The position numbers and the translations under genes were made by a program. The notes beneath the pieces were generated by a model, which saw only the letters and a program-made list of their open reading frames with translations, searched no databases and was not told the origin of the DNA. 64,000 nucleotides of DNA from Escherichia coli (GTDB taxonomy: Bacteria > Pseudomonadota > Gammaproteobacteria > Enterobacterales > Enterobacteriaceae), in NCBI RefSeq assembly GCF_036507355.1, contig NZ_AP027877.1. One strand, given 5' to 3'. The first letter of the stretch is position 1. Each line of letters opens with the position of its first letter. Shown here piece by piece: positions 3,337-19,937 of this stretch.

Positions 3337-3344
3337 CCTTCCTG

Positions 3345-3382
3345 AAAATGCCCGGTCCTGGCGATCGGGCATTTCCATTTTT
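3345..3382. terminator. Bidirectional rho-independent terminator between convergent pitB and yghT
   Basis: gaaaatgcccg ... cgggcatttcc stem followed by a T-run (ccattttt). Confidence 0.5.
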
Positions 3383-3384
3383 GG

Positions 3385-4077
3385 CTAGTGATAACCACGC
3401 GCGGTCATAAAATCCGTAATCGCTTTTTCTGCATCAACCAACACCTGTTCCAGTGGCTGATTGGCATCGATATCAACCAGTTGTGCACCACCAAAGGTTA
3501 ACTGTGGCGTTATGGCAATCTTCCTCGCCAGCGATTCCCGTTTATGGTCGGGTTTACGCATGCAGGCAACTTCAAGGTCAACATTGAGTTTGATGACCAG
3601 ATCAGGCTTATGGCTCGCCATCCAGTGAAACGCTTTACGTTCCTGGCTTGCCAGCCATGAGACAAAACGACCACCTTCAACGTTAGGTGGGAACACCGTA
3701 CCATCGTAAGCGCCAGGAATTTGGTCCTGAGGATAACGGTCGGTTAGAACAATTAACCCGCGACGACGACAGGCAAGCATATGACGAAAGCGCAGTAAGC
3801 GACGGGCGACAAACGCTGTAATTACCAGCGCCGGAACTGGTCCAGGCAATTTTTTTGCTGTTTTCACCTGATTTCGTTCAATTGTTTTATGTAAGGATTT
3901 TCCCATCAACGGTAATTTTGTCACTGCACGACCGACATTTCCGGCCTGTTTTCCTAAATGAACTCTTTCGGCAGCACCATATTTTTCGACAACGGTAATG
4001 AGATGTTCACACACCGTTGACTTGCCTGAACCATCGCTACCAATAACGGCAATTAATGGAGGTGTTATTGACTGCAT
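3385..4077 (-). CDS. yghT: P-loop ATP-binding protein YghT (predicted kinase-like)
   Basis: 230-aa ORF with Walker [12 protein letters not shown]; paralogous to the two following genes; K-12 synteny. Confidence 0.8.
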
Positions 4078-4250
4078 GAATATATCCTTTAATTTAAATA
4101 TCCATTAAAAATATTTATTTGGTTAATATGTTTTTATGAAAGCGTAATTCAGGTCAATGTCACAATTAACCATTGTCACAATAAGGTTGAACGGATATTC
4201 TGAGCACGGACCACGTAATATTCAATACATTATTTGCTGCCGGGTTTTTC

Positions 4251-4964
4251 GTGAATCAACGTAATATGTCAATAATTAATTCCACGCCAGTGCGTGTTAT
4301 TGCCATTGTAGGATGTGATGGTTCAGGTAAATCGACCCTCACGGCAAGCCTGGTAAATGAACTGGCAGCAAGAATACCAGCAGAACACATTTATCTCGGG
4401 CAATCGTCCGGGCGAATTGGCGAATGGATTTCACAGCTCCCTGTTATTGGCGCACCTTTTGGGCGTTATCTGCGAAGTAAAGCGGCACATGTGCACGAAA
4501 AGCCCTCAACACCGCCTGGCAATATTACTGCGCTGGTTATCTATCTGCTTTCCTGCTGGCGGGCGTACAAGTTTCGCAAAATGTTGTGTAGAAGCCAGCA
4601 AGGCCATCTGCTCATCACCGACCGCTACCCGCAGGTTGAAGTGCCGGGTTTTCGCTTTGATGGCCCGCAATTGGCAAAAACCACGGGCGGTAACGGTTGG
4701 ATAAAAATGTTAAGGCAGCGCGAGTTGAAGCTGTACCAATGGATGGCGTCTTATTTACCCGTATTGTTGATTCGTCTTGGCATTGATGAACAAACCGCGT
4801 TTGCGCGTAAACCTGACCACCAACTGGCAGCGTTACAGGAAAAAATCGCCGTTACGCCGCAACTGACATTCAATGGCGCAAAGATCCTTGAACTGGATGG
4901 TCGGCAACCAGCCGATGAAATTCTGCAAGCGTCACTACGCGCAATTCACGCCGCGCTTTCCTGA
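4251..4964 (+). CDS. yghS: P-loop ATP-binding protein YghS
   Basis: 237-aa ORF with Walker A IVGCDGSGKST and a shared ITDRYPQ motif. Confidence 0.8.
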   Translation: MNQRNMSIINSTPVRVIAIVGCDGSGKSTLTASLVNELAARIPAEHIYLGQSSGRIGEWISQLPVIGAPFGRYLRSKAAHVHEKPSTPPGNITALVIYLLSCWRAYKFRKMLCRSQQGHLLITDRYPQVEVPGFRFDGPQLAKTTGGNGWIKMLRQRELKLYQWMASYLPVLLIRLGIDEQTAFARKPDHQLAALQEKIAVTPQLTFNGAKILELDGRQPADEILQASLRAIHAALS

Positions 4965-4995
4965 TCACCAAAATGGATAGGGGATGATTTAACGA

Positions 4996-5754
4996 ATGGA
5001 TGCACTACAAACACAAACTGTTATTAGTACAACCGCGCCGCAGCCCAACTACATTCCGGGGCTGATTGCGGTGGTCGGGTGTGATGGCACCGGTAAATCC
5101 ACACTGACCACCGACCTGGTGAAATCGCTGCAACAACACTGGCAAACCGAGCGGCGCTATCTGGGGCTGCTCTCCGGCGAAGACGGCGACAAAATCAAAC
5201 GATTGCCGTTGGTTGGCGTCTGGCTGGAACGGCGACTGGCGGCCAAATCCTCGAAAACCCAAAGCATGAAAACCAAATCTCCGGCGCTATGGGCGGCGGT
5301 GATTATGTACTGCTTCTCGCTGCGAAGAATGGCGAATCTACGCAAGGTTCAGCGACTGGCGCAAAGTGGCGTTCTGGTGGTCAGCGATCGCTTCCCGCAG
5401 GCTGAAATTTCGGGCTTTTATTATGATGGACCGGGGATTGGCGTCGAACGTGCGACCGGGAAAATAAGCATGTTTCTGGCGCAGCGCGAACGGCGTTTAT
5501 ACCAACAAATGGCGCAATATCGCCCGGAATTAATTATTCGCTTGGGCATTGATATTGAGACTGCCATCTCCCGCAAGCCTGACCATGACTATGCCGAGCT
5601 GCAGGACAAAATCGGTGTTATGTCGACGATTGGCTATAACGGCACAAAAATTCTTGAGATTGATTCCAGAGCGCCCTACAGCGAAGTGCTGGAACAGGCA
5701 CAGAAGGCGGTTTCTCTGGTTGCCATCGTTTCTGACCGCCGAAGTTTAACTTAA
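4996..5754 (+). CDS. yghR: P-loop ATP-binding protein YghR
   Basis: 252-aa ORF with Walker A VVGCDGTGKST and a shared VSDRFPQ motif. Confidence 0.8.
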   Translation: MDALQTQTVISTTAPQPNYIPGLIAVVGCDGTGKSTLTTDLVKSLQQHWQTERRYLGLLSGEDGDKIKRLPLVGVWLERRLAAKSSKTQSMKTKSPALWAAVIMYCFSLRRMANLRKVQRLAQSGVLVVSDRFPQAEISGFYYDGPGIGVERATGKISMFLAQRERRLYQQMAQYRPELIIRLGIDIETAISRKPDHDYAELQDKIGVMSTIGYNGTKILEIDSRAPYSEVLEQAQKAVSLVAIVSDRRSLT

Positions 5755-5799
5755 GGCTGGCGGGATACTTTTTACTATCAACGATAAGGTCAGGCTGAA

Positions 5800-7149
5800 T
5801 TGGCGGGTTTTAACATCAAACATTGGTTTGCAGATGGCGCGTTTCGCACCATTATTCGCAATAGCGCCTGGTTAGGCTCCAGTAATGTCGTGAGCGCCTT
5901 GCTGGGTCTGTTGGCGCTCTCGTGTGCCGGTAAAGGGATGACGCCCGCCATGTTTGGCGTACTGGTGATTGTGCAATCGTACGCCAAGTCGATCAGCGAT
6001 TTTATTAAGTTTCAGACATGGCAGCTGGTGGTTCAGTACGGAACACCAGCATTAACCAACAATAATCCGCAGCAATTTCGCAATGTCGTCTCATTTTCCT
6101 TCTCGCTGGATATCGTCAGCGGCGCGGTGGCGATTGTCGGCGGCATTGCCTTACTGCCATTCCTTTCCCATTCATTAGGTCTGGATGACCAAAGCTTTTG
6201 GCTGGCGGCGCTGTATTGCACGTTCATTCCTTCAATGGCTTCCTCCACGCCGACCGGCATTCTGCGTGCGGTAGATCGCTTTGATTTGATTGCTGTACAG
6301 CAGGCGACGAAACCTTTTCTGCGCGCAGCGGGGAGCGTCGCAGCCTGGTATTTTGACTTTGGTTTTGCGGGTTTTGTTATTGCCTGGTACGTGTCGAATC
6401 TGGTTGGCGGCACCATGTACTGGTGGTTTGCCGCGCACGAATTACGCCGCAGAAATATCCATAACGCCTTCAAATTGAATCTGTTTGAGTCTGCCCGACA
6501 CATTAAAGGCGCGTGGAGTTTTGTCTGGTCAACCAACATTGCCCACTCCATCTGGTCGGCGCGTAACTCGTGCAGCACAGTGTTGGTGGGGATCGTGTTA
6601 GGACCCGCTGCCGCCGGGTTATTTAAAATCGCCATGACATTCTTCGATGCCGCCGGAACGCCAGCGGGTTTGCTGGGTAAAAGTTTTTACCCAGAGGTGA
6701 TGCGTTTAGATCCGCGCACCACCAGACCGTGGTTGTTAGGCGTGAAGTCCGGTTTACTGGCGGGCGGAATCGGTATTCTGGTGGCGCTCGCGGTGTTGAT
6801 CGTCGGCAAGCCGCTCATTTCGCTGGTGTTTGGCGTTAAGTATCTCGAAGCGTATGACCTGATTCAGGTGATGCTGGGCGCAATTGTGATCTCGATGCTG
6901 GGTTTCCCGCAGGAGTCATTGCTATTGATGGCGGGAAAACAGCGCGCTTTTCTCGTGGCGCAAACCATCGCCTCAATCGGCTACATCGTATTGCTGTTCA
7001 TGTTCTGTCATCTGTTTGGTGTGCTGGGAGCAGCGTTTGCTTACTTCGGTGGGCAATGTCTGGACGTGGCGCTCTCGTTAATTCCAACCTTAAAGGCATT
7101 TTTTCAGCGCCATTCCTTGCTTTATAACGCAGCCGGAGAGAAATCCTGA
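5800..7149 (+). CDS. yghQ: Putative polysaccharide/lipid flippase of the MOP superfamily (YghQ); start uncertain, the ORF-track start at 5800 is TTG and an internal ATG lies at about 5938
   Basis: Long multi-pass hydrophobic ORF in the position of yghQ. Confidence 0.7.
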   Translation: MAGFNIKHWFADGAFRTIIRNSAWLGSSNVVSALLGLLALSCAGKGMTPAMFGVLVIVQSYAKSISDFIKFQTWQLVVQYGTPALTNNNPQQFRNVVSFSFSLDIVSGAVAIVGGIALLPFLSHSLGLDDQSFWLAALYCTFIPSMASSTPTGILRAVDRFDLIAVQQATKPFLRAAGSVAAWYFDFGFAGFVIAWYVSNLVGGTMYWWFAAHELRRRNIHNAFKLNLFESARHIKGAWSFVWSTNIAHSIWSARNSCSTVLVGIVLGPAAAGLFKIAMTFFDAAGTPAGLLGKSFYPEVMRLDPRTTRPWLLGVKSGLLAGGIGILVALAVLIVGKPLISLVFGVKYLEAYDLIQVMLGAIVISMLGFPQESLLLMAGKQRAFLVAQTIASIGYIVLLFMFCHLFGVLGAAFAYFGGQCLDVALSLIPTLKAFFQRHSLLYNAAGEKS

Positions 7150-7973
7150 TGATGAGAAAATATTTCCCGCTTGAGGCGAGCGAGCATCTATTTGTTGCGA
7201 TTGAGGAAGATGATGTTGTTGATGCCCAGGTCAGTTTGCCGCCGACTATCGCACTAAGTTGTACCACCGAAATCATCCATGATAATTACGCGTTATGCCT
7301 GCAATTCTGGCTCAATGGCGTTGATCGTCAGGAATTACTTCGTTTAATTCGCAAACAAGCCAAAGGCGATGAGCTGACGACAGACGAGCGTAAACAGTTT
7401 AAATACATGCGAGCGCGCTACAAGCATCTACGTTTTGCACAACGGCTGTATTTAAAAAAGCATCAGGCCAGATTTTTATTCGGCAAAACGACCGTTTTTC
7501 TGGGACGTTTTCAGGACGGATTTCGTAACGGTAAGAAAAATATTGTGTCGTATTACGGCAACCTGTTACGAATTTATTTAAGCTCTCCGGTCTGGTCGTT
7601 GGTGAACTATTCATTACGCCATAGCCAGTTAGAAAGCGTAAGCGGTTTTATTGCCTATCGGCAAAAGCAAATGCATACCCTGAAAGAGATTATTGCCAAA
7701 CCGCGACTAACCGGCAGGGAATTTCATGATGTGCGAAAAATCATCAGCCAGCAGGTTTCTTATTACGACACCTTAAGATCGCTTGATCCTGAAAATAAAG
7801 AGGCGTTACAGATTTCCCGTTTCCTCGCCGCCATTAATGGCCTGATGGGGGATCAACACGACGACATGGTGGCGGATGATATGGAAAACCGCCAGTCGTA
7901 TGATGCACCGGTGGCGCTGGATAGCGATATTCGCCAGCGCTTAGAGCTGCTGATTTCGCGTTTTCCGCTATAA
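7149..7973 (+). CDS. Hypothetical protein (274 aa), translationally coupled to yghQ
   Basis: ATG overlaps the yghQ stop (tgATGatg); no family recognised. Confidence 0.55.
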   Translation: MMRKYFPLEASEHLFVAIEEDDVVDAQVSLPPTIALSCTTEIIHDNYALCLQFWLNGVDRQELLRLIRKQAKGDELTTDERKQFKYMRARYKHLRFAQRLYLKKHQARFLFGKTTVFLGRFQDGFRNGKKNIVSYYGNLLRIYLSSPVWSLVNYSLRHSQLESVSGFIAYRQKQMHTLKEIIAKPRLTGREFHDVRKIISQQVSYYDTLRSLDPENKEALQISRFLAAINGLMGDQHDDMVADDMENRQSYDAPVALDSDIRQRLELLISRFPL

Positions 7974-7981
7974 CCGGAGCA

Positions 7982-8545
7982 ATGATGTCATCTCGTTTGA
8001 TTATTGCGCTGATTATCATGCTCTTAGCCCCGGGTGTGCAGGCACACAATTTCGTCACTGGCAAAACGGTTACCCCTGTTTATATTCAGGAAGGCGGCGA
8101 GCTGCTTCTGAATAGCGACGACGAAATTCACTACCAAAAGTGGAACAGCACACAATTGGCGGGAAAAGTCCGAATTATCCAGTATATCGCCGGGCGTAAG
8201 TCGGCGAAGAAAAAGAACTCACTGTTAATTAAAGCGGTTGAAGCGGCAAACTTTCCGCAGGATCGTTTTCAGCCCACCACCATTGTGAACACCGATGATG
8301 CCATCTTTGGTACTGGCTATTTTGTTGTTGGCAAAATCGAAAAAAATAAACGCCACTATCCGTGGGCGCAATTCGTTATTGACGGCAATGGACAGGGACG
8401 CGTTGCCTGGCGCTTGCCGGAGCAGAGTTCAACCATTCTGGTGCTGAATAAAGCCGGGCAAATTCAGTGGGCAAAGGACGGCAGCCTGACGCCGGAAGAG
8501 GTAGATCATGTTATTGCGCTGGCGCAGAAACTGATCAATGAATAA
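7982..8545 (+). CDS. YtfJ-family periplasmic protein (signal peptide)
   Basis: N-terminal signal peptide MMSSRLIIALIIMLLAPGVQA; motifs WNSTQLAGKVRIIQYIAGR and TTIVNTDDAI resemble recalled YtfJ. Confidence 0.55.
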   Translation: MMSSRLIIALIIMLLAPGVQAHNFVTGKTVTPVYIQEGGELLLNSDDEIHYQKWNSTQLAGKVRIIQYIAGRKSAKKKNSLLIKAVEAANFPQDRFQPTTIVNTDDAIFGTGYFVVGKIEKNKRHYPWAQFVIDGNGQGRVAWRLPEQSSTILVLNKAGQIQWAKDGSLTPEEVDHVIALAQKLINE

Positions 8546-8575
8546 AAAATTCAAAGGATTGAGGGCGTTAGTGAG

Positions 8576-9646
8576 ATGAAGCTGGTTGAACACTACATCA
8601 TGCGTGGTACGCGCCGTCTGGTGCTGATTATCGTCGGTTTTCTGATCTTTATTTTCGCCAGCTACTCCGCACAGCGTTATCTGACCGAAGCGGCAAATGG
8701 GACATTAGCTCTTGATGTTGTGCTGGATATCGTTTTCTACAAAGTGCTGATTGCACTGGAGATGTTGTTACCTGTTGGTCTGTATGTGTCAGTTGGCGTG
8801 ACGCTAGGGCAGATGTATACCGACTCGGAAATTACCGCTATCTCTGCGGCGGGGGGCAGTCCGGGACGCTTGTACAAAGCCGTTCTTTATCTGGCGATAC
8901 CGCTAAGTATTTTTGTCACCCTTCTGTCGATGTATGGTCGTCCGTGGGCTTATGCGCAGATTTATCAACTGGAGCAGCAGTCGCAGTCGGAGCTGGATGT
9001 TCGCCAGTTGCGGGCAAAGAAATTTAACACTAACGATAACGGACGAATGATCCTTTCGCAGACGGTTGATCAGGATAATAATCGCCTGACTGACGCGCTG
9101 ATTTATACTTCTACTGCCAATCGAACCCGCATTTTCCGCGCCCGTTCGGTTGATGTGGTTGACCCATCACCCGAGAAACCGACCGTTATGTTGCACAACG
9201 GCACTGCCTATCTTCTCGATCATCAGGGGCGTGACGACAACGAACAGATCTACCGTAATCTGCAATTACATCTGAATCCGCTGGATCAAAGCCCTAACGT
9301 CAAACGCAAAGCGAAATCGGTCACGGAGCTGGCGCGCTCCGTCTTTCCAGCCGATCATGCCGAACTGCAATGGCGACAAAGCCGTGGCCTGACCGCATTG
9401 TTGATGGCGCTGCTGGCCATTTCATTAAGTCGGGTAAAACCGCGGCAAGGGCGATTTTCAACATTATTGCCACTGACGTTGCTGTTTATTGCCATTTTTT
9501 ATGGCGGCGACGTCTGCCGTACGCTGGTGGCTAACGGCGCGATTCCCCTCATTCCTGGTTTGTGGTTAGTACCCGGACTCATGCTAATGGGCCTGCTGAT
9601 GCTGGTCGCACGCGACTTCTCTTTGCTGCAGAAATTTTCCCGATGA
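8576..9646 (+). CDS. LptF/LptG-family (YjgP/YjgQ) permease paralog
   Basis: 356-aa membrane protein with the family's N-terminal pattern (HYIMRGTRRLVLIIVGFLIF) and a large periplasmic loop. Confidence 0.65.
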   Translation: MKLVEHYIMRGTRRLVLIIVGFLIFIFASYSAQRYLTEAANGTLALDVVLDIVFYKVLIALEMLLPVGLYVSVGVTLGQMYTDSEITAISAAGGSPGRLYKAVLYLAIPLSIFVTLLSMYGRPWAYAQIYQLEQQSQSELDVRQLRAKKFNTNDNGRMILSQTVDQDNNRLTDALIYTSTANRTRIFRARSVDVVDPSPEKPTVMLHNGTAYLLDHQGRDDNEQIYRNLQLHLNPLDQSPNVKRKAKSVTELARSVFPADHAELQWRQSRGLTALLMALLAISLSRVKPRQGRFSTLLPLTLLFIAIFYGGDVCRTLVANGAIPLIPGLWLVPGLMLMGLLMLVARDFSLLQKFSR

Positions 9647-10722
9647 ATGTTTTCAGTCGCTATTTAATCCGTCATCTCTTTCTCGGTTTTGCCGCCGCCG
9701 CAGGGCTATTGCTGCCGCTTTTTACCACCTTCAACCTGATTAACGAACTGGATGATGTCAGCCCGGGCGGTTATCGCTGGACTCAGGCGGTGCTGGTGGT
9801 GCTAATGACCTTACCGCGCACACTTGTCGAACTTTCGCCATTTATCGCCTTATTGGGAGGGATTGTCGGCCTGGGGCAGCTATCGAAAAACAGTGAGCTT
9901 ACCGCCATTCGCAGCACGGGGTTTTCTATCTTCCGTATTGCACTGGTGGCGCTGGTTGCCGGGATATTGTGGACTGTTTCGTTAGGCGCGATAGATGAGC
10001 GGGTAGCGTCGCCATTGCAGCAACAGGCGCTGCAAATCAAATCGACCGCCACCGCGTTGGGGGAGGACGATGACATTACCGGCAATATGCTGTGGGCCAG
10101 GCGCGGCAATGAATTTGTGACGGTGAAATCGCTGAATGAGCAGGGCCAGCCTGTGGGCGTGGAGATTTTTCATTATCGTGACGATCTCTCGCTCGAATCC
10201 TACATTTATGCACGCAGTGCCACCATTGAAGACGACAAAACGTGGATCCTGCATGGTGTGAATCATAAAAAATGGCTGAATGGCAAAGAAACGCTGGAAA
10301 CATTAGATAATCTTGCCTGGCAATCGGCCTTCACCAGTATGGATCTTGAAGAGCTATCGATGCCGGGGAATACTTTTTCTGTCCGTCAGCTTAATCATTA
10401 CATCCATTATTTGCAGGAAACCGGGCAACCCAGCAGCGAATACCGCCTTGCACTGTGGGAAAAACTGGGGCAACCCATCCTGACCCTGGCGATGATTTTG
10501 CTGGCTGTGCCGTTTACCTTTAGCGCCCCGCGCTCGCCAGGGATGGGTAGCCGTCTCGCTGTAGGCGTCATCGTTGGCTTACTCACCTGGATCAGCTATC
10601 AAATCATGGTCAATTTGGGATTGCTATTTGCGTTAAGCGCACCTGTTACCGCGCTCGGTTTACCGATAGCGTTTGTGCTGGTGGCGTTGAGCCTGGTGTA
10701 TTGGTATGACAGACAACATTAA
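9643..10722 (+). CDS. LptF/LptG-family (YjgP/YjgQ) permease paralog; start taken at MNVFSRYLIRHLF, overlapping the upstream stop by 4 nt
   Basis: N-terminus MNVFSRYLIRHLFLGF is typical of LptG-like proteins; ATGA overlap with the upstream gene. Confidence 0.65.
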   Translation: MNVFSRYLIRHLFLGFAAAAGLLLPLFTTFNLINELDDVSPGGYRWTQAVLVVLMTLPRTLVELSPFIALLGGIVGLGQLSKNSELTAIRSTGFSIFRIALVALVAGILWTVSLGAIDERVASPLQQQALQIKSTATALGEDDDITGNMLWARRGNEFVTVKSLNEQGQPVGVEIFHYRDDLSLESYIYARSATIEDDKTWILHGVNHKKWLNGKETLETLDNLAWQSAFTSMDLEELSMPGNTFSVRQLNHYIHYLQETGQPSSEYRLALWEKLGQPILTLAMILLAVPFTFSAPRSPGMGSRLAVGVIVGLLTWISYQIMVNLGLLFALSAPVTALGLPIAFVLVALSLVYWYDRQH

Positions 10723-10756
10723 ACCCGCCGTGGCGCAACACCACGGCGGGCTCACA

Positions 10757-11929
10757 TTACTGCTTCAGAGTAGCAAATGCCTGAATGATGGCATCGATTT
10801 GCTCACGACTGTGGGCAGCGTTTACGCTACAGCGCAGCAGCGTGATGCCTGCAGGCGCGGCAGGTGGCAGGATAAGATTCACATAAACGCCCAGCGAAAT
10901 AAGCTCGCGCCAGATGCGTAAACCTTCCTCTTTCGAACCGATTATTACCGGCACTACCGGACTAATATGTGAACTTAACTCATAACTCAGCTTTTGCAGC
11001 CCGTCATACAGATGGTTGGCATTATCCATCAGTTTTTGCCGCAACTCTGGTTGAGTGGCAATGGTTCTTAACGACGAGCGCACGGTTGCAATGCAGGAAG
11101 GAGAAGGGGAGGCGGTAAAAATATACGGACGACTGCCGTAGCGCAGCACTTCCATCGCTTCCGAACCCACGGCAAAACCACCAATAGAAGCCAGGCTTTT
11201 ACTGAAGGTGCCAACGATAATATCCACATCATCTTCAACGCCAACGGCTTCAACCAGCCCGCGCCCCGTTGCGCCTAACACGCCAAACGAGTGAGCTTCA
11301 TCGACAATTAAATATCCGCCGAGACGACGTTTGATATCAACAATTTCCGCCAGCGGCGCAACGTCACCGAGCATACTGTAGATGCCCTCAACGATGATAA
11401 TCGCCTCTTTCGCCCGTTCACCGAGGCGAACCATGCGCCGTTCCAGATCTTTAGCATCGTTATGGCGGAAACGAATAATTTCCGCGCCACCGAGAGAACA
11501 GGCGTCATAAATACTGGCGTGGCTGTCAGCATCCAGTAACACCACGGCGTTATGGTCGGCAAGTGCGCTGATGACGCCTAAATTAGCGGTATAACCGGTT
11601 GAAAAAACGATAGCGGTAGGGCGATTGAAAAACTCAGCAATCTCTTTCTCTAACGCCAGATGCGGCGCATAACTGCCGTTTGCCATACGAGAACCGGTGG
11701 TGCCGGTGCCTTGGGCCGCTAACGCTGCCTGACCTTCGGCGATGGCATCATGATTGAAGGTTAATCCGAGATAATTATTGGTCCCGGCCAGAATCACTTT
11801 TTTATTGCCGATCCGGCCTTCGGTGGCGGAATACACTTCATCAATACAGGTGCCAAACGGTGTTAACCCGTTGTCACTAAATTGCAGACGCTCGCCAGCA
11901 AGGCGCGCATATTTATCGTATAGCCCCAT
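10757..11929 (-). CDS. PLP-dependent alpha-oxoamine synthase family acyltransferase (AONS/KBL/serine-palmitoyltransferase-like)
   Basis: 390 aa; class-II aminotransferase fold motifs and PLP lysine context GTFSKSL. Confidence 0.8.
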   Translation of the reverse strand: MGLYDKYARLAGERLQFSDNGLTPFGTCIDEVYSATEGRIGNKKVILAGTNNYLGLTFNHDAIAEGQAALAAQGTGTTGSRMANGSYAPHLALEKEIAEFFNRPTAIVFSTGYTANLGVISALADHNAVVLLDADSHASIYDACSLGGAEIIRFRHNDAKDLERRMVRLGERAKEAIIIVEGIYSMLGDVAPLAEIVDIKRRLGGYLIVDEAHSFGVLGATGRGLVEAVGVEDDVDIIVGTFSKSLASIGGFAVGSEAMEVLRYGSRPYIFTASPSPSCIATVRSSLRTIATQPELRQKLMDNANHLYDGLQKLSYELSSHISPVVPVIIGSKEEGLRIWRELISLGVYVNLILPPAAPAGITLLRCSVNAAHSREQIDAIIQAFATLKQ

Positions 11930-12177
11930 TATTTATTCTCCAGCCATGGAAGTAGAGTTTCCATTAATTGCGCAGGGGTTTTGACATCCAGCAGAATATT
12001 AATAGGAATGGAAATATCGAATCTGTCTTCCAGCATCATTAAGAGATCCATCACTTTGATCGACTCCAGGCCAAGATCGTTGACGAGATCGCTGTCGGGC
12101 TTAATTTCCACACCGTTTTCGACCAAATCCTGTAAACAGGAAAGGATGTAATCCATTACTATTTCACGATTTACCAT
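11929..12177 (-). CDS. Acyl carrier protein
   Basis: 82-aa acidic protein with phosphopantetheine attachment motif DLGLESIKVMDL. Confidence 0.7.
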   Translation of the reverse strand: MVNREIVMDYILSCLQDLVENGVEIKPDSDLVNDLGLESIKVMDLLMMLEDRFDISIPINILLDVKTPAQLMETLLPWLENK

Positions 12178-12208
12178 AGAAACGTTAACACACCTTTAAA
12201 CAAGACAA

Positions 12209-13123
12209 TCAAAATAGCCCGTTGCGTAATGCGTGTTCCAGGCTAATCCCGGGAAACCAATTAATATCTTCAGAAATACGGTTATTACTTGCCGACCAGT
12301 CGGCGTGGGTTAATTCACGAATTTTCGAGCGGGTCAGCATAGGTTCTTTACCTGCCAGGCGACTCAACGCGGTACTGATATCCGCAAGGCAGGTGAGTAC
12401 CGGCAGAGGAATGCCAACCATTCGCACGGAACCACAACGGGCGTCGGCGGCAAGTTGCTGTACGCGTTGCCAGTCATAGCCGCCAGCGACGCCATCGCAT
12501 AATTCATAGGTTTGCGTCTGTACAGTTTCGGCGCTTAACCACTGACCCACTGCTTGCGCAAAATCGGTGACATGCAGGAAAGAGAGCTGTGTATCTGGTG
12601 CACCAAGTCGTGGCAGCAGGCCGCGCAGCATCCAGTCAAACAGCGGTTTTAACTCTTTATCGCCGGGACCATACACGGCTGTCGGGCGAAAAACGCCCAG
12701 CGTAATTTCGTCAGCCATTGCCGTCAGCCGTTGTTCGGCGACGTGTTTGGAATTTGCGTACCAGGAGAGCTCGGGATGGCGCGCCGCCAGCGAAGAGATA
12801 AACAGAAAACGTTGGCAAAAGCCGCTCTCTTTTGCTGCTTGCATCAGGCGCAGGCTGCCGTCAACGTTACAGTGGGTAAAAATCTCTTCTTTGTGTCCGC
12901 GCACTTGCCCGGCGCAATGGACCACCGCGCTGGCTCCGGCAACCAGTTCGCTAAGCGAATGTGTATCTTCCAGCGAACCGCGCACCCAAGTAAGATTATC
13001 ATTGACGTGAGCGCGGGCAGTACGCGTCAATGCGCGAACGTGAAAGCCGCGGGCGAGCAGGTTATCGATAATATATTTACCGATAAAACCGGTAGCGCCC
13101 GTCACCGCGACAGTTTGATTCAT
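12209..13123 (-). CDS. NAD(P)-dependent epimerase/dehydratase or reductase (extended SDR)
   Basis: N-terminal Rossmann motif VAVTGATGFIGKYI; 304 aa. Confidence 0.75.
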   Translation of the reverse strand: MNQTVAVTGATGFIGKYIIDNLLARGFHVRALTRTARAHVNDNLTWVRGSLEDTHSLSELVAGASAVVHCAGQVRGHKEEIFTHCNVDGSLRLMQAAKESGFCQRFLFISSLAARHPELSWYANSKHVAEQRLTAMADEITLGVFRPTAVYGPGDKELKPLFDWMLRGLLPRLGAPDTQLSFLHVTDFAQAVGQWLSAETVQTQTYELCDGVAGGYDWQRVQQLAADARCGSVRMVGIPLPVLTCLADISTALSRLAGKEPMLTRSKIRELTHADWSASNNRISEDINWFPGISLEHALRNGLF

Positions 13124-14844
13124 GCCAGGGATTCCTGCACATGAAGGCTTGCAGCATAAGCCTTCTGATAACGTTTTTTCGCTTCCGCACGGGCAGGCTT
13201 GCCGGAGGACGTTCGGGGAATGCTGTGGGGCGGCAACAGATCGATAGCCGCGGTCACGCCAAATTCGCTTTGGATCCGTGCTGCCAGCGCGTGGATAAGC
13301 TGCCCGCGACGTTCTTCATCGCTGATCCGACACTGGATCTGCAAAATGATTTTTTCCTGGACGGTAACAAAAGCAATCGCATCGCCAGAATGAATTTCCG
13401 GTTCCTGTTCCGCTATATATTCAATATCCTGCGGCCAGATATTACGGCCACGAATAATAATCAGATCTTTAATGCGTCCGGTGACATACAGATAACCATC
13501 CAGCAGATAACCGAGGTCGCCAGTGTCTAACCAGCCCGTCGCGGCAATCTCGTCTTGCGAAGCCTGGTCGCCAAAGTAACCGCTCATCAGACTGGGACCG
13601 GAGATGCAAATATGGCCTACCACACGTTCCGCGACCGGCATACCTGCTTGATTGCGGATTTCAATACCATGTTCCGGCAACGCTTTGCCGCAGTTGACGA
13701 AAGTCGATACGGCGCGTGTCTCTGCACCCGGCGCGACGGCTTTACCCTGATATTCGAGGATGTCGCGATCCACTTCGTTAACTACAACCCCGGAGGCTTC
13801 ATCAGAGAAGCTGACAGCCAGCGCATTTTCTGCCAGGCCGTAGCACGGCATGAAAGTTTTATCGTCAAAGTTAACCTGACGGAAACATTCAGCGAATTGA
13901 TGGAGTTGTTCTGCGGAGATGGGTTCTGCACCAATACCAGCGACGCGCCAGCAGGAAAGATCCAGTTCAGCGAGATCTTTTTCATTCACGCGGCGCTGGC
14001 ACAATTCATAGCCAAACGGCGGCGCAACGGAAACGGTGCCGCGATTTTTACTGATCAATTTAAGCCATTGCAGAGGACGCATGGCAAAATCCTGAGTGCG
14101 CAAATAATCTACTGAAAGTTGCGTGGCGACGGGGGTCAGGAGAAAGCCGACCAGTCCCATATCATGGTAGAAAGGCAGCCAGGAGACGCAGCGGTCGCCA
14201 GGGCGTAATTTAATGCCGTCGTGGCTTATAGCACGTAGATTAGCCATCACTTCGCGATGGGTGATAATGACGCCACGGGGAAAACGGGTGCTGCCGGAGG
14301 TGTACTGGAGGTAGGCGATATCGTTCGGAACTGGACGCTGGAGCGCAACATCGGCTTCCGGTAATGCCTTAAACCAGGCGTGGCTTAAAACATGTAATTC
14401 GGGGTTGTCATGCGTCGCGGCATTGACCAGTGGCAACCACTCATCACCAGTGATAATGGCTGCGGGCTGGCAACTTGTCAGTAAACCCTGCAATTTGGCG
14501 CTCCAGGAATCCCGCTGACCAACGCCCATTGGAATCGCCAACGGGACGGCGACTAAGCCGGCATACTGGCAGGCAAAAAAAGCCTCTACGAACCCGCTAC
14601 TTGTTTCGGCAATCAGTGCCACGCGATCGCCTTTTTTCAGGTTCAGCGATAACAACCGCTTCGCACCAGCTTCGGCACGCGCTTTTAACGTCTGATATTC
14701 CAGTTGATCTTCAAGTTGGCAACGTCTGTCATAAAAATTCATTCCAGCGCTACTCAGAGCGGCGTAGTCCAAAGCATCAACCAGCGTTGGAAAATCGGCA
14801 TAGCGTATAGGTAGGGAATGCGTAAAGATTTTATTAGACATATA
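13120..14844 (-). CDS. Fatty acyl-AMP ligase / acyl-CoA synthetase (AMP-binding superfamily); start taken at ATG MSNKIF
   Basis: AMP-binding motifs (YLQYTSGSTRFPRGV, GYG/ELC region); stop overlaps the start of the downstream epimerase gene. Confidence 0.8.
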   Translation of the reverse strand, partial: YMSNKIFTHSLPIRYADFPTLVDALDYAALSSAGMNFYDRRCQLEDQLEYQTLKARAEAGAKRLLSLNLKKGDRVALIAETSSGFVEAFFACQYAGLVAVPLAIPMGVGQRDSWSAKLQGLLTSCQPAAIITGDEWLPLVNAATHDNPELHVLSHAWFKALPEADVALQRPVPNDIAYLQYTSGSTRFPRGVIITHREVMANLRAISHDGIKLRPGDRCVSWLPFYHDMGLVGFLLTPVATQLSVDYLRTQDFAMRPLQWLKLISKNRGTVSVAPPFGYELCQRRVNEKDLAELDLSCWRVAGIGAEPISAEQLHQFAECFRQVNFDDKTFMPCYGLAENALAVSFSDEASGVVVNEVDRDILEYQGKAVAPGAETRAVSTFVNCGKALPEHGIEIRNQAGMPVAERVVGHICISGPSLMSGYFGDQASQDEIAATGWLDTGDLGYLLDGYLYVTGRIKDLIIIRGRNIWPQDIEYIAEQEPEIHSGDAIAFVTVQEKIILQIQCRISDEERRGQLIHALAARIQSEFGVTAAIDLLPPHSIPRTSSGKPARAEAKKRYQKAYAASLHVQESLA

Positions 14845-15211
14845 CACCACGAAAAAATTGGATATCCAAAATAAAATGACAATAATGCGGTGGATTATAT
14901 AGGCATAAAAGATAAATGAGATAGTATTTTCATCGGTGTGAAAATGAACATTGATTTAAATAATGAGTTTAAGTTTTTTGTTTTTATTGTGAATGATATT
15001 TAATTTATGAATATATTAAGAAGAAGCCTTGTCCGGTCGCCTTAAATCGACAAAAGGCATTGTGGCGCTTCTGCGTAGTCGCTGACCCTATCGTAATCAT
15101 TAATAAATACTATTTATTCGTCGTTTGTATTCATTGGGTTGATTATTAAGATGCCGTTCGTTGCTGTTGCAACCTGTTTTTCACCGTTAATTATTTGTTA
15201 TCCACAGAACT

Positions 15212-16354
15212 ATGGAATGCGATCTGCTGATGATCAAAATTGAAAAAGTAATTAATAAAAATGACCTTAAGGCATTTATTGCTTTTCCGTCATCACTTTA
15301 TCCCGATGATCCAAACTGGATACCCCCTTTATTCATTGAACGCAGCGAGCATTTGTCTGCGAAGAATCCGGGGACGGACCATATCATCTGGCAGGCGTGG
15401 GTGGCAAAAAAAGCGGGGCAGATAGTTGGGCGTATTACCGCGCAAATAGATACCTTACACCGCGAGTGTTACGGCGAAGATACCGGTCATTTCGGCATGA
15501 TTGACGCCATTGATGATCCGCAGGTTTTTGCCGCGTTGTTTGGCGCAGCGGAAGCGTGGTTGAAGTCACAAGGTGCAAGTAAGATCAGCGGGCCTTTCAG
15601 CCTGAATATCAATCAGGAAAGCGGATTACTGATTGAAGGTTTTGACACACCACCCTGTGCGATGATGCCACACGGCAAACCGTGGTATGCCGCGCATATT
15701 GAACAACTGGGTTATCACAAAGGCATTGATTTACTGGCGTGGTGGATGCAGCGAACCGATCTCACTTTCTCTCCGGCGCTAAAAAAACTGATGGTTCAGG
15801 TGCGCAAAAAGGTGACCATTCGCTGCATCAATCGCCAGCGGTTTGCCGAAGAGATGCAGATCCTGCGTGAGATTTTCAACTCTGGCTGGCAGCACAACTG
15901 GGGATTTGTGCCGTTTACCGAACATGAATTCGCGACCATGGGCGACCAACTTAAATATCTGGTGCCGGACGATATGATCTACATCGCTGAGATTGATTCT
16001 GCACCTTGCGCGTTTATTGTCGGCTTGCCAAACATCAACGAGGCGATTGCCGATCTGAACGGATCGCTCTTTCCCTTCGGCTGGGCAAAATTGCTGTGGC
16101 GTTTGAAAGTCAGCGGTGTGCGAACTGCGCGAGTACCGCTGATGGGCGTGCGCGACGAGTATCAGTTCAGCCGCATCGGCCCGGTGATTGCGCTGTTATT
16201 GATTGAAGCCTTACGCGATCCGTTTGCCCGCCGGAAGATCGATGCGCTGGAGATGTCATGGATCCTCGAAACCAATACAGGCATGAATAACATGCTGGAA
16301 CGCATTGGGGCGGAGCCGTACAAGCGTTACCGATTGTATGAAAAGCAGATTTAA
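15212..16354 (+). CDS. yghO: YghO-like protein (full length here)
   Basis: 380-aa ORF in the yghO position, divergent from the lipid cluster and adjacent to glcC. Confidence 0.6.
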   Translation: MECDLLMIKIEKVINKNDLKAFIAFPSSLYPDDPNWIPPLFIERSEHLSAKNPGTDHIIWQAWVAKKAGQIVGRITAQIDTLHRECYGEDTGHFGMIDAIDDPQVFAALFGAAEAWLKSQGASKISGPFSLNINQESGLLIEGFDTPPCAMMPHGKPWYAAHIEQLGYHKGIDLLAWWMQRTDLTFSPALKKLMVQVRKKVTIRCINRQRFAEEMQILREIFNSGWQHNWGFVPFTEHEFATMGDQLKYLVPDDMIYIAEIDSAPCAFIVGLPNINEAIADLNGSLFPFGWAKLLWRLKVSGVRTARVPLMGVRDEYQFSRIGPVIALLLIEALRDPFARRKIDALEMSWILETNTGMNNMLERIGAEPYKRYRLYEKQI

Positions 16355-16360
16355 TACCAG

Positions 16361-17125
16361 CTAACTCAGGTTCATCTCCAGCGGCACCGCCGAGCGAATC
16401 AAATGGTGGCCTTCCAGCTCGATATCGTGGAGATTCTTTTTCACGGTCCGCACATGATCGCGTGCTGCGCGCTGGGCGACGTGCGGCAGCCGCTGCAACA
16501 CCGCGTTGTAGATCCGCGCATGCTGGCGATCGATCTGCTTTTTTTGCTGTGGTCGATGGTAGAGATTATTTACGCTGGCAAACACTGAATTAAACATCAG
16601 ATCGGTCAATGATTGCAGCGTAAACACCAACACCTGATTGTGAGAAGCCTGACAAATGGCGAGATGGAAAGCGTGATCCAACTGCGCATGTTCGATCAGC
16701 GAAATCTCTTTGTTGTTCTCACTGGCGGCGAGCATTTTTTCATAACAGCGGGTTATCACAACAAAATCAGCCTGGGTTCCCAGCGTTGCCGCAAGCCTTG
16801 CCGATTCGCCCTCCAGCAATGCGCGAACGTCGAGCAGATCATACAGCGTTCGCGGCTGCGTACTGAACAGATGGATCAGCGGGCTGGTGTCCTGCACCCG
16901 ATTAAGCCGTGCGACACGAGAATCGCGACCCTGCGCCGTTTCAATAATCCCGCGCCCGCGCAGCACGGTCAGCCCTTCACGCAGTGCGGAGCGTGAGAAC
17001 CCGAGCTTTTCACACAGTCGACGTTCCGAGGGAAGCGGCTGACCGACCTTCAGTACGCCGTCGATAATTAACCGTTCGATACTCTCTGCAACCACTTCGC
17101 AAATAGGGCGACGTTCATCTTTCAT
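16361..17125 (-). CDS. glcC: GntR/FadR-family transcriptional activator of the glycolate operon, GlcC (start at MKDERRP)
   Basis: Matches recalled GlcC sequence and length (254 aa); divergent from glcD. Confidence 0.9.
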   Translation of the reverse strand: MKDERRPICEVVAESIERLIIDGVLKVGQPLPSERRLCEKLGFSRSALREGLTVLRGRGIIETAQGRDSRVARLNRVQDTSPLIHLFSTQPRTLYDLLDVRALLEGESARLAATLGTQADFVVITRCYEKMLAASENNKEISLIEHAQLDHAFHLAICQASHNQVLVFTLQSLTDLMFNSVFASVNNLYHRPQQKKQIDRQHARIYNAVLQRLPHVAQRAARDHVRTVKKNLHDIELEGHHLIRSAVPLEMNLS

Positions 17126-17375
17126 TCCCGGACCTCGTGCACAGGTAGGACCAATTTTTCTGTTCTTAACTCGCAAAACACGCACATCACGTAAGTGATT
17201 ATGTTACATCAATTTAACATTAAGTTAACCAAGACAAGGTCACAGAGCTGGAAAAAAAATGGTCTGACCGGTAGCTAAAGAGATAGACGAAAACGAAAAG
17301 CCCGCTTAATAACTGTTCACAGAAGCAGCGCGCAAAAATCAGCTGCCACACAACACAACAAAGCGAAGCCTACTC
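17126..17375. promoter_or_regulatory. Divergent glcC / glcDEFGBA promoter-operator region
   Basis: Intergenic region between divergent glcC and glcD; in K-12 it is known to carry the glc promoters and regulator sites; no motifs were mapped here. Confidence 0.4.
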
Positions 17376-18875
17376 ATGAGCATCTTGTACGAAGAGCGTC
17401 TTGATGGCGCTTTACCCGATGTCGACCGCACATCGGTACTGATGGCACTGCGTGAGCATGTCCCTGGACTTGAGATCCTGCATACCGATGAGGAGATCAT
17501 TCCTTACGAGTGTGACGGGTTGAGCGCGTATCGCACGCGTCCATTACTGGTTGTTCTGCCTAAGCAAATGGAACAGGTGACAGCGATTCTGGCTGTCTGC
17601 CATCGCCTGCGTGTACCGGTGGTGACCCGTGGTGCAGGCACCGGGCTTTCTGGTGGCGCGCTGCCGCTGGAAAAAGGTGTGTTGTTGGTGATGGCGCGCT
17701 TTAAAGAGATCCTCGACATTAATCCCGTTGGTCGCCGCGCGCGCGTGCAGCCAGGCGTGCGTAACCTGGCGATCTCCCAGGCCGTTGCACCGCATAATCT
17801 CTACTACGCACCGGATCCTTCCTCACAAATCGCCTGTTCCATTGGCGGCAACGTGGCGGAAAATGCCGGTGGCGTCCACTGCCTGAAATATGGTCTGACC
17901 GTACATAACCTGCTGAAAATTGAAGTGCAAACGCTGGATGGCGAGGCACTGACGCTGGGATCGGATGCGCTGGATTCGCCTGGTTTTGACCTGCTGGCGT
18001 TGTTCACCGGATCGGAAGGTATGCTCGGCGTGACCACCGAAGTGACGGTAAAACTGCTGCCGAAGCCGCCCGTGGCGCGGGTTCTGTTAGCAAGCTTTGA
18101 CTCGGTAGAAAAAGCCGGACTTGCGGTTGGTGACATCATCGCCAATGGCATTATCCCCGGCGGGCTGGAGATGATGGATAACCTGTCGATCCGCGCGGCG
18201 GAAGATTTTATTCATGCCGGTTATCCCGTCGACGCCGAAGCGATTTTGTTATGCGAGCTGGACGGCGTGGAGTCTGACGTACAGGAAGACTGCGAGCGGG
18301 TTAACGACATCTTGTTGAAAGCGGGCGCGACTGACGTCCGTCTGGCACAGGACGAAGCAGAGCGCGTACGTTTCTGGGCCGGTCGCAAAAATGCGTTCCC
18401 GGCGGTAGGACGTATCTCCCCGGATTACTACTGCATGGATGGCACCATCCCGCGTCGCGCCCTGCCTGGCGTACTGGAAGGCATTGCTCGTTTATCGCAG
18501 CAATATGATTTACGTGTTGCCAACGTCTTTCATGCCGGAGATGGCAACATGCACCCGTTAATCCTTTTCGATGCCAACGAACCCGGTGAATTTGCCCGCG
18601 CGGAAGAGCTGGGCGGGAAGATCCTCGAACTCTGCGTTGAAGTTGGCGGCAGCATCAGTGGGGAACATGGCATCGGGCGAGAAAAAATCAATCAAATGTG
18701 CGCCCAGTTCAATAGCGATGAAATCACGACCTTCCATGCGGTCAAGGCGGCGTTTGACCCCGATGGTTTGCTGAACCCTGGGAAAAACATTCCCACGCTA
18801 CACCGCTGTGCTGAATTTGGTGCCATGCATGTGCATCACGGTCATTTACCTTTTCCTGAACTGGAGCGCTTCTGA
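17376..18875 (+). CDS. glcD: Glycolate oxidase FAD-binding subunit GlcD
   Basis: 499 aa; FAD-binding PCMH-type domain motifs; operon context. Confidence 0.93.
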   Translation: MSILYEERLDGALPDVDRTSVLMALREHVPGLEILHTDEEIIPYECDGLSAYRTRPLLVVLPKQMEQVTAILAVCHRLRVPVVTRGAGTGLSGGALPLEKGVLLVMARFKEILDINPVGRRARVQPGVRNLAISQAVAPHNLYYAPDPSSQIACSIGGNVAENAGGVHCLKYGLTVHNLLKIEVQTLDGEALTLGSDALDSPGFDLLALFTGSEGMLGVTTEVTVKLLPKPPVARVLLASFDSVEKAGLAVGDIIANGIIPGGLEMMDNLSIRAAEDFIHAGYPVDAEAILLCELDGVESDVQEDCERVNDILLKAGATDVRLAQDEAERVRFWAGRKNAFPAVGRISPDYYCMDGTIPRRALPGVLEGIARLSQQYDLRVANVFHAGDGNMHPLILFDANEPGEFARAEELGGKILELCVEVGGSISGEHGIGREKINQMCAQFNSDEITTFHAVKAAFDPDGLLNPGKNIPTLHRCAEFGAMHVHHGHLPFPELERF

Positions 18876-19927: not shown

Positions 19928-19937
19928 GGAGCAGGCT

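Follow-up and report, generated by a model that had tools for sequence, protein, structure and literature searches.

An Escherichia coli locus that probably represents the proteobacterial sphingolipid pathway, with a companion set of putative head-group genes

In Caulobacter crescentus the genes for sphingolipid synthesis lie in a single locus (CCNA_01210-01226 / CC_1152-1165), which comprises spt, acpR, cerR, aasR, bCerS, lptF2, lptG2 and cpgABCD and whose product is ceramide diphosphoglycerate. The corresponding cluster of Escherichia coli was studied by Padilla-Gomez et al. in 2022 (PMC9386255) in strain BL21(DE3), where it carries the designations ECD_02850-02854, and the locus of E. coli UTI89 has been drawn next to that of Caulobacter in a preprint (bioRxiv 2026). 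Here we describe the locus in a stretch of 64,000 nucleotides of an E. coli chromosome (contig NZ_AP027877.1 of assembly GCF_036507355.1), referred to below as the window, in which the gene order is gss-pitB-yghT-yghS-yghR-yghQ ... yghO-glcC-glcDEF. Our analysis indicates, with a probability that we put at roughly 0.8, that we are dealing with the E. coli counterpart of the sphingolipid loci of Proteobacteria, a 13-gene unit that makes ceramide and exports it to the outer membrane and that includes a companion head-group module.

E. coli is the textbook organism to which only three major membrane lipids are ascribed. That picture rests on K-12, a strain which lost the pathway to the insertion sequence IS5, a fact that is published but little known; three quarters of the complete E. 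coli genomes hold an intact, selectively kept set of genes for this presumed ceramide pathway with its own exporter. The core of the locus is already known, as the cluster, its first enzymes and the idea of an LptF2/LptG2 exporter have all been published for E. coli; what is new here is the larger 13-gene unit, the conserved module of kinases, CHAD-like protein and flippase, and the hypothesis of a phospho-ceramide.

Layout of the locus and the ceramide-forming steps

The functional unit spans 3385-16354 and contains 13 genes, being larger than the interval proposed in a first-pass annotation made from the letters of the window. Family calls were made using the curated equivalog cut-offs of NCBIfam, and in the feature list below the model scores are given in bits against those cut-offs.

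3385..4077, minus strand: yghT, P-loop kinase of the thymidylate-kinase superfamily, paralogue of YghS and YghR, with a GxDGxGKST P-loop and a DRYPQ motif
4251..4964, plus strand: yghS, second thymidylate-kinase-like paralogue (TIGR00041, 24.7 bits, cut-off 83)
4996..5754, plus strand: yghR, third thymidylate-kinase-like paralogue
5800..7149, plus strand: yghQ, inner-membrane flippase of the MOP (multidrug/oligosaccharidyl-lipid/polysaccharide; Wzx/Polysacc_synt) type, candidate (phospho)ceramide flippase
7149..7973, plus strand: unannotated open reading frame (ORF) of 274 aa, soluble basic protein with an all-helical, CHAD-like predicted fold
7982..8545, plus strand: YtfJ-family periplasmic protein with a Sec signal peptide ending in VQA, cleaved before HN (TIGR01626, 212 versus 151)
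8576..9646, plus strand: lptF2, divergent LptF paralogue and counterpart of Caulobacter LptF2 (TIGR04407, 318 versus 230)
9643..10722, plus strand: lptG2, divergent LptG paralogue (TIGR04408, 305 versus 240)
10720..10754, no strand: G+C-rich hairpin with a 16-bp stem, filling the 35 bp between the convergent stop codons of lptG2 and spt
10757..11929, minus strand: spt, serine palmitoyltransferase (SPT), an alpha-oxoamine synthase dependent on pyridoxal phosphate (PLP) (NF047599, 596 versus 500)
11929..12177, minus strand: acpR, dedicated acyl carrier protein (ACP) of 82 aa, PP-binding fold with the motif LGLESIKVMD
12209..13123, minus strand: cerR/epi, NAD(P)-dependent reductase of the extended short-chain dehydrogenase/reductase (SDR) type, putatively acting in 3-keto reduction (GATGFIG Rossmann motif, family matches)
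13120..~14841, minus strand: aasR, fatty acyl-AMP ligase (FAAL) / acyl-AcpR synthetase (NF006624, 873 versus 600)
14842..15211, no strand: AT-rich divergent intergenic (regulatory) region of 370 bp between aasR and yghO, within the K-12 deletion
15212..16354, plus strand: yghO, orthologue (to CC_1154) of the bacterial ceramide synthase (bCerS/Aca), N-acyltransferase
6869..15251, no strand: interval missing from K-12, with IS5 in its place (blastn of the DH1 locus against the window; DH1 annotation)

The PLP-dependent enzyme is, judging from its family scores, a serine palmitoyltransferase and not a BioF paralogue. As a whole protein it scored 595.6 bits on NF047599 (cut-off 500), against 334 on bioF (426), 295 on KBL (460) and 221 on the CqsA-type model (428); its closest solved relatives are the Sphingomonas SPTs at 375 bits (E 4e-111, residues 3-385 aligning with the S. 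paucimobilis enzyme), with BioF and KBL structures at 176-200 bits (E. coli BioF 176). The protein carries the PLP-lysine motif GTFSKS (VGTFSKSLASIGGF), and the RefSeq annotation names the gene spt. The identities BioF, KBL, CqsA and cysteate acyltransferase were ruled out by the curated cut-offs and by the ranking of the solved relatives. A search for homologues of this SPT gave only close relatives, of at least 84% identity. A 'eukprot' entry, P0167, shares 98% identity with the E. coli SPT and has a PP-binding domain fused to it; for an entry of a eukaryotic data set, bacterial contamination or an ACP-SPT read-through is the likeliest explanation.

The gene for the 82-aa ACP lies directly upstream of spt and overlaps its start, with the FAAL-type gene nearby; orthologues of AcpR and AasR carry PF00550 and PF00501, respectively. 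For these first steps there is biochemistry on the BL21(DE3) orthologues ECD_02851, ECD_02853 and ECD_02854 (PMC9386255): AcpR of E. coli B bears 4'-phosphopantetheine, AasR_Ec is an acyl-AcpR synthetase that makes no acyl-CoA (coenzyme A), acylating its cognate AcpR_Ec and neither CoA nor the housekeeping AcpP, and SPT_Ec (ECD_02854) prefers acyl-AcpR and forms 3-oxosphinganine from labelled serine.

The following steps are assigned by comparison with Caulobacter. In published BLAST searches (PMC9386255) YghO (ECD_02850) matched CC_1154/CCNA_01212 with 44% identity (E 1e-107, 98% coverage) and the SDR (ECD_02852) matched the ceramide reductase CC_1164 with 34% identity over 94% coverage; by orthology, YghO would be the ceramide synthase and the SDR the ceramide reductase of E. 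coli. The YghO of the window is 95-98% identical to other Escherichia YghO proteins. It gave no match in Pfam, NCBIfam or PDB sequences, the sole trace of a GNAT fold being a faint PF00583 hit on one homologue; the family is large, with 1116 clusters at E <= 1e-30 in a library clustered at 50%. Two distant homologues are both encoded within 10 kb of SPT and LptF/G genes, as YghO is encoded with spt in about 40 gammaproteobacterial species. The one at 47% identity, from a metagenome-assembled genome (MAG) of the Kiloniellaceae, adjoins a fatty-acid hydroxylase, two LptF/G genes, a CDP-alcohol (cytidine diphosphate-alcohol) transferase, a DAGK_cat kinase and an SPT, and the one at 34% identity, from another distant genome, has as neighbours on its two sides an SDR, an SPT, an LptF/G gene and enzymes of the ceramide-glucosyltransferase type. 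The core, made up of SPT, a YghO-type acyltransferase, a reductase and LptF/G, is thus constant, and it is the head-group genes that vary. CerR has its GATGFIG motif at residues 9-15 and matches the epimerase, 3beta-HSD and NmrA families. Fold matches of YghR include the complex I subunit NDUFA10, and CerR has been said to resemble NDUFA9; the two resemblances are probably a coincidence.

Every gene type named in the first-pass annotation was found as an intact ORF, five of the families (SPT, FAAL, LptF, LptG and YtfJ) scoring above their NCBIfam cut-offs, and 8 further intact genes lie between yghQ and yghO. The interval it had proposed, 7149-16354, contains the core genes; it leaves out the flippase yghQ that the annotation itself had named, as well as yghR, yghS and yghT, overlooks the 274-aa ORF, and gives no role to yghO. 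Its description of the LptF/G-like permeases as devoid of an ATPase of their own was borne out, no ABC (ATP-binding cassette) ATPase, lptB or lptC being present among the genes of the locus, and the caveat it had raised, that the SPT-like enzyme might be a BioF paralogue, is answered by a protein which passes the SPT equivalog cut-off and fails that of bioF. The chemistry it had implied, namely fatty-acid activation, ACP loading, Claisen condensation with an amino acid, reduction and export to the envelope of a product of the sphingoid class, is supported by the family scores and by published work (PMC9386255, bioRxiv 2026). It had called the product unknown, which remains correct for the mature native lipid, of which the searchable literature contains no report, but not for the pathway as such, since the 3-oxosphinganine/dihydroceramide route has been published for this cluster and the role of LptF/G by analogy.

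Regarding the remaining features, the start codon of aasR is uncertain, with an ATG at 14841 and a RefSeq start in a related strain at the equivalent of 14808. The G+C content falls to 0.42 in a 1-kb window around 14842-15211, a plausible site of silencing or regulation, for example via H-NS. A second strong hairpin, at 3346-3374, lies exactly between the convergent ends of pitB and yghT, and both this hairpin and the one at 10720-10754 are likely bidirectional terminators; they are the only two that stand out, promoter and terminator scans being overall at chance (18 versus 15.4 and 18 versus 17.1). No glycosyltransferase, CDP-alcohol transferase or DAGK-type kinase was found in the E. coli locus. 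A role in anti-phage defence was also considered and rejected, PADLOC returning only P-loop noise (E 2e-4 or weaker).

Conservation across species and the K-12 deletion

One genome per species was scanned with an alignment of the 274-aa protein, which gave 48 loci, and all proteins of the window were then compared by tblastn. Loci were found in Escherichia, Pseudocitrobacter, Citrobacter, Hafnia, Shimwellia, Serratia, Sodalis, Pantoea, Erwinia, Rosenbergiella, Tatumella and Rahnella, further ones in Mangrovibacter, Pluralibacter, Cedecea and Klebsiella indica, and, among the Rhodanobacteraceae, in Rhodanobacter, Luteibacter and Dyella. In approximately 44 of the 48, yghQ followed by the 274-aa gene, yghR, yghS and in most cases also yghT accompany spt-acpR-cerR-aasR and yghO, the gene blocks occurring in at least 4 different orders or orientations across these ~44 species of Enterobacterales and Rhodanobacteraceae. 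Synteny of yghT with the ceramide genes was seen in about 40 species, and yghQ is immediately upstream of the CHAD-like gene in all loci having yghQ (45/45). Moreover, YghR (480 clusters of homologues) and the 274-aa protein (343 clusters) share one narrow range of genera. The companion genes are thus conserved with the core, and it is on this basis that we delimit the functional unit.

The ratio of nonsynonymous to synonymous substitutions (dN/dS) against E. whittamii was 0.035-0.155 for all 13 genes, the same range as that of the flanking pitB and glcC, with a value of 0.07 for yghT; against Pseudocitrobacter it was 0.05-0.12. Values this low, like those of the neighbours, indicate that the locus is maintained by purifying selection.

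Several loci differ from that of E. coli in gene content. In Rhodanobacter, Luteibacter and Dyella, the 20-kb loci examined contain neither the YtfJ gene nor lptF2 and lptG2; genes for an MdtABC-like pump of the RND (resistance-nodulation-division) type and a NodT-type outer-membrane factor lie between the CHAD-like gene and yghO, and an OlsC/LpxO-like acyl 2-hydroxylase gene lies between yghR and aasR, a gene content which suggests that export takes another route and that the acyl chain is hydroxylated. Pluralibacter gergoviae and a Pluralibacter MAG each have a second, stand-alone CHAD-like gene away from the sphingolipid locus, which in P. gergoviae is about 3 kb from another OlsC/LpxO-like hydroxylase gene and otherwise among unrelated transporter and amidohydrolase genes. 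In Sodalis sp. C49, a small DAGK_prokar (diacylglycerol kinase) gene is found at 19667-20026, between yghO and a yghR-like gene.

Within E. coli, the best known strain is an exception. In the K-12 derivative DH1, positions 3001-6868 and 15252-17500 of the window are conserved at ~99%, and the 8,383 bp between them (6869-15251) are replaced by IS5; the sequence lost comprises the last 281 nt of yghQ, 8 complete genes, the region between aasR and yghO, and 40 nt from the start of yghO. According to the first-pass annotation, K-12 carries IS5 and a yghO fragment in place of the cluster; the loss of the cluster and the presence of IS5 are confirmed by this comparison, and yghO is indeed truncated, although it loses only its first 13 codons and its promoter and is therefore no mere fragment. 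In the remnant, yghT, yghS and yghR are intact and yghQ is truncated at its 3' end. The three kinase-like genes stay intact in K-12 although their presumed partner genes are deleted there. The K-12 literature on yghQ, which concerns chlorhexidine, deals with the truncated remnant and is silent on the intact locus.

At least 80% of the region 7149-14850 is present in 4066 of 5426 complete E. coli genomes (75%), with no match to the central part of the locus in about 1190 of the 5426; the locus is part of the E. coli soft core and K-12 is the exception. Other independent lesions were seen among the complete genomes: one insertion of ISVsa5 (IS4 family), one split locus, and others that keep 19% or 1% of the region. 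The closest of the 5426 genomes matched the 12.5-kb region at 98.8% and few did so at >=99%; the scarcity of near matches suggests that the source strain belongs to a sparsely sampled lineage.

Export genes, companion genes and the proposed lipid

LptF2 scored 94 bits against E. coli LptF (6mhu_F) and LptG2 140 bits against E. coli LptG (6mhu_G), both aligning over their full length and both showing hydrophobic segments; from these scores, they are best regarded as old, divergent paralogues of the housekeeping LptF and LptG. The YtfJ family (TIGR01626, YtfJ_HI0045) has no known function. For the member encoded here we found no solved relative; in the tblastn comparison of species loci its gene was always found with the lptF2/lptG2 pair, and the protein may be a periplasmic partner of LptF2G2. 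According to the preprint of the Klein laboratory (bioRxiv 2026), LptF2 and LptG2 of Caulobacter form a complex, bind the single housekeeping LptB, and can be deleted only when sphingolipid synthesis is off; the LptF/G paralogues of sphingolipid loci, including that of E. coli UTI89, are proposed there as sphingolipid exporters that borrow LptB.

Turning to the companion genes, YghT, YghS and YghR are mutually 34-44% identical (YghT 34-37% to YghR and YghS, YghS 44% to YghR) and share an invariant GxDGxGKST P-loop and a DR(Y/F)PQ motif, in agreement with a nucleoside monophosphate (NMP)-kinase fold. A profile of the family reaches Tmk sequences at E 3e-6; on the dTMP-kinase equivalog TIGR00041 the three proteins scored 24.7-32 bits, short of the cut-off of 83.25. 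They contain an extra insert of ~40 residues, modelled with a low pLDDT (predicted local distance difference test). The thymidylate-kinase-type fold phosphorylates hydroxyls, as in the deoxynucleoside kinases, or phosphate monoesters, as in the NMP kinases. Homology to the Caulobacter kinase CpgB was ruled out, as CpgB is of the DAGK_cat/LCB5 type with a GGDG motif, not a P-loop.

The 274-aa protein gave a confident, all-helical model (pLDDT 91.6), for which CHAD domains were the best fold matches. In a Foldseek search the Ricinus CHAD structure was top-ranked with probability 0.99, with a non-significant E-value of 0.06 and a template-modelling (TM) score of 0.48; a CHAD-like fold is likely but not proven. 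The CHAD fold (Pfam PF05235) is a pair of four-helix bundles whose basic surface is rich in conserved His, Arg and Lys. CHAD domains bind inorganic polyphosphate through this basic surface (bioRxiv 10.1101/567040). In one public annotation the protein appears as a 'TPR repeat protein clustered with yghQ', and in another a relative is mislabelled GspM. Our literature searches found no paper linking CHAD with sphingolipids. As for YghQ, its score on NF007773 is weak (33.6 bits versus 273), placing it as a superfamily member only; orthologues carry PF01943 and PF13440, and the protein has multiple transmembrane segments. Wzx-type flippases normally handle lipid-pyrophosphate-linked cargo.

Taking these results together with the published ones, the following mechanism can be proposed. 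AasR would convert a free fatty acid into acyl-AMP and load it on AcpR, and SPT would condense acyl-AcpR with L-serine to give 3-oxosphinganine and CO2, as has been demonstrated for the E. coli B orthologues. YghO (bCerS) would N-acylate the long-chain base and CerR would reduce the 3-keto group to give dihydroceramide, both by orthology to genetically validated Caulobacter genes. LptF2 and LptG2, following the Caulobacter preprint, would be the membrane part of an ABC extractor that borrows the housekeeping LptB and moves the lipid towards the outer membrane. The weakest part, which is our own inference, is the head-group and handling module, to which we assign YghT, YghS, YghR, the CHAD-like protein, YghQ and the YtfJ-like protein: the kinases may add phosphate to ceramide, perhaps repeatedly, the CHAD-like protein, being basic, may bind the anionic head group, and YghQ may flip the product across the inner membrane. 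Because the three P-loop kinases are the only candidates for head-group enzymes in the locus, the mature lipid would most simply be a ceramide with one or more phosphates. Extending this, we tentatively suggest, as an idea with more against it than for it at present, that Enterobacterales and Rhodanobacteraceae have a class of sphingolipids whose head group is built by kinases alone, that is, a ceramide phosphate, pyrophosphate or oligophosphate made via YghT/S/R, held by the CHAD protein, flipped by the Wzx-like protein and delivered to the cell surface by LptF2G2-LptB or, in Rhodanobacteraceae, by the MdtABC-type RND pump.

A number of points weigh against the interpretation of the locus as a 13-gene sphingolipid unit. 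For the head group, the hypothesis is an inference from synteny and fold. The kinases score far short of the cut-off of the dTMP-kinase equivalog, no match points to a particular substrate, and the ceramide kinase of Caulobacter, CpgB, belongs to a different family, DAGK_cat. The 274-aa protein has no CHAD support at the sequence level, with no Pfam match at E <= 10 and no PDB sequence found at E <= 10 by a profile of 25 homologues, and its fold match has the E-value given above and a TM below 0.5. With respect to the core, the ceramide synthase and reductase roles in E. coli are assigned solely by orthology, two groups disagree on whether acylation or reduction comes first, and Caulobacter CerR has been reported as periplasmic, whereas E. 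coli CerR starts at its Rossmann motif and has no visible signal peptide. The LptB-sharing model comes from a preprint on another organism. Finally, we did not find a native E. coli sphingolipid reported in the searchable literature, and in BL21 with the chromosomal cluster and empty vectors 3-oxosphinganine was undetectable (PMC9386255).

Among the alternatives, the one that survives best, although we regard it as unlikely, is that YghT/S/R and the CHAD-like protein are a separate polyphosphate module of the PPK3 type lying beside the ceramide core, or else supply polyphosphate as a phosphoryl donor. The parallel is striking: in the recently described PPK3, two thymidylate-kinase paralogues have been exapted to form the enzyme, and their genes adjoin that of a CHAD protein (PMC12995831). 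However, there are no PPX, SixA or Pst genes in the locus, E. coli already has PPK1, and the profile of YghR/S/T is no nearer to a PPK3 homologue than to ordinary Tmk, 2plr being absent among the best 60 matches; besides, the kinase genes stay with spt and yghO through at least 4 rearrangements and in two orders, which argues for functional coupling with the ceramide genes. That yghT/S/R are retained in K-12 says little in this respect, as the deletion removes part of the conserved unit and not one module. This alternative and the sphingolipid reading would be compatible if the lipid head group received its phosphoryl groups from polyphosphate.

The undetectable 3-oxosphinganine of BL21 could also be taken to mean that the locus is a cryptic remnant in E. 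coli, intact on paper and making no lipid under any natural condition, as could its repeated loss (the IS5 deletion of K-12, other partial deletions and the IS4 insertion) and the AT-richness of the promoter region. We consider this improbable, and more so than the polyphosphate module, given that 75% of the complete genomes retain the locus, that all 13 ORFs are full length with dN/dS values like those of the housekeeping neighbours against both E. whittamii and Pseudocitrobacter, and that the cloned E. coli enzymes are active (PMC9386255). Under standard laboratory conditions of culture the locus does appear silent; its AT-rich control region between divergent genes, together with the strong purifying selection, suggests that it is expressed conditionally and is not decaying. 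Lastly, the idea that the alpha-oxoamine synthase uses glycine, alanine or cysteate, or serves biotin or quorum-signal synthesis, the product being a non-sphingoid amino lipid, a sulfonolipid or a small molecule, draws on the promiscuity of the family and on the lower-scoring matches to bioF, KBL, CqsA-type and cysteate acyltransferase models or structures, and is largely refuted, with next to no likelihood left, by scores under the curated cut-offs where the SPT equivalog is passed, by SPT structures that rank best by ~170 bits, by the 3-oxosphinganine that the E. coli B enzyme makes from labelled serine (PMC9386255), and by flanking genes that are orthologues of ceramide synthase and reductase.

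On the reading of the locus as a sphingolipid unit, the lipid may affect susceptibility to polymyxin or chlorhexidine, the robustness of the outer membrane and, in the gut and urinary tract, the sphingolipid signalling of the host, and the kinase trio, the CHAD-like protein and the flippase offer concrete gene targets. If the phosphate hypothesis is true, it would mean a new lipid head-group enzymology and a second cellular role for the CHAD fold; if the head group is indeed built by the kinases, the outer membrane of most wild E. coli would hold, in addition to lipopolysaccharide (LPS), a second anionic lipid that is expressed conditionally.

Comparison with known systems

The first committed reaction and the dihydroceramide product class are the same as in the Bacteroidota pathway (SPT, KDSR-type reductase, CerS). 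Bacteroidota, unlike E. coli, use acyl-CoA and have neither AcpR/AasR nor a second LptFG, and their SPT is more distant, that of S. multivorum (3a2b) scoring 260 bits versus 375 for the Sphingomonas enzymes. With the Sphingomonas SPTs (S. paucimobilis 2jg2, S. wittichii 2x8u) the E. coli enzyme shares the same PLP-lysine motif and an ACP gene directly upstream; in Sphingomonadaceae, however, aasR has a separate genomic location and sphingolipids take the place of LPS, whereas E. coli keeps LPS and clusters all the genes.

As to export, LptF2 and LptG2 score above the equivalog cut-offs for LptF and LptG, which relates them to the LptB2FG extractor of LPS, but they have no adjacent LptB or LptC, they are encoded in a lipid-synthesis locus, and their cargo would be a sphingolipid and not LPS. 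The companion genes recall the PPK3 operon of Sulfolobus (Saci_2019/2020 with the CHAD protein Saci_2021) in that several thymidylate-kinase-superfamily paralogues stand beside a CHAD or, in E. coli, a CHAD-like protein; the E. coli locus differs from it in having no PPX/SixA, three paralogues instead of two, an embedding among ceramide genes and no specific sequence affinity.

The closest system is that of Caulobacter, with which E. coli shares the same five ceramide-synthesis genes and an LptF/LptG pair without an ATPase. E. coli does not have the DAGK_cat ceramide kinase CpgB, the CDP-alcohol transferase, the cytidylyltransferase CpgD or LptC2, and has instead three thymidylate-kinase-like paralogues, a CHAD-like protein, a MOP flippase and a YtfJ-family protein; the logic of the locus, in which synthesis and export genes are joined by what would be an anionic-head-group module, is nevertheless the same in both.

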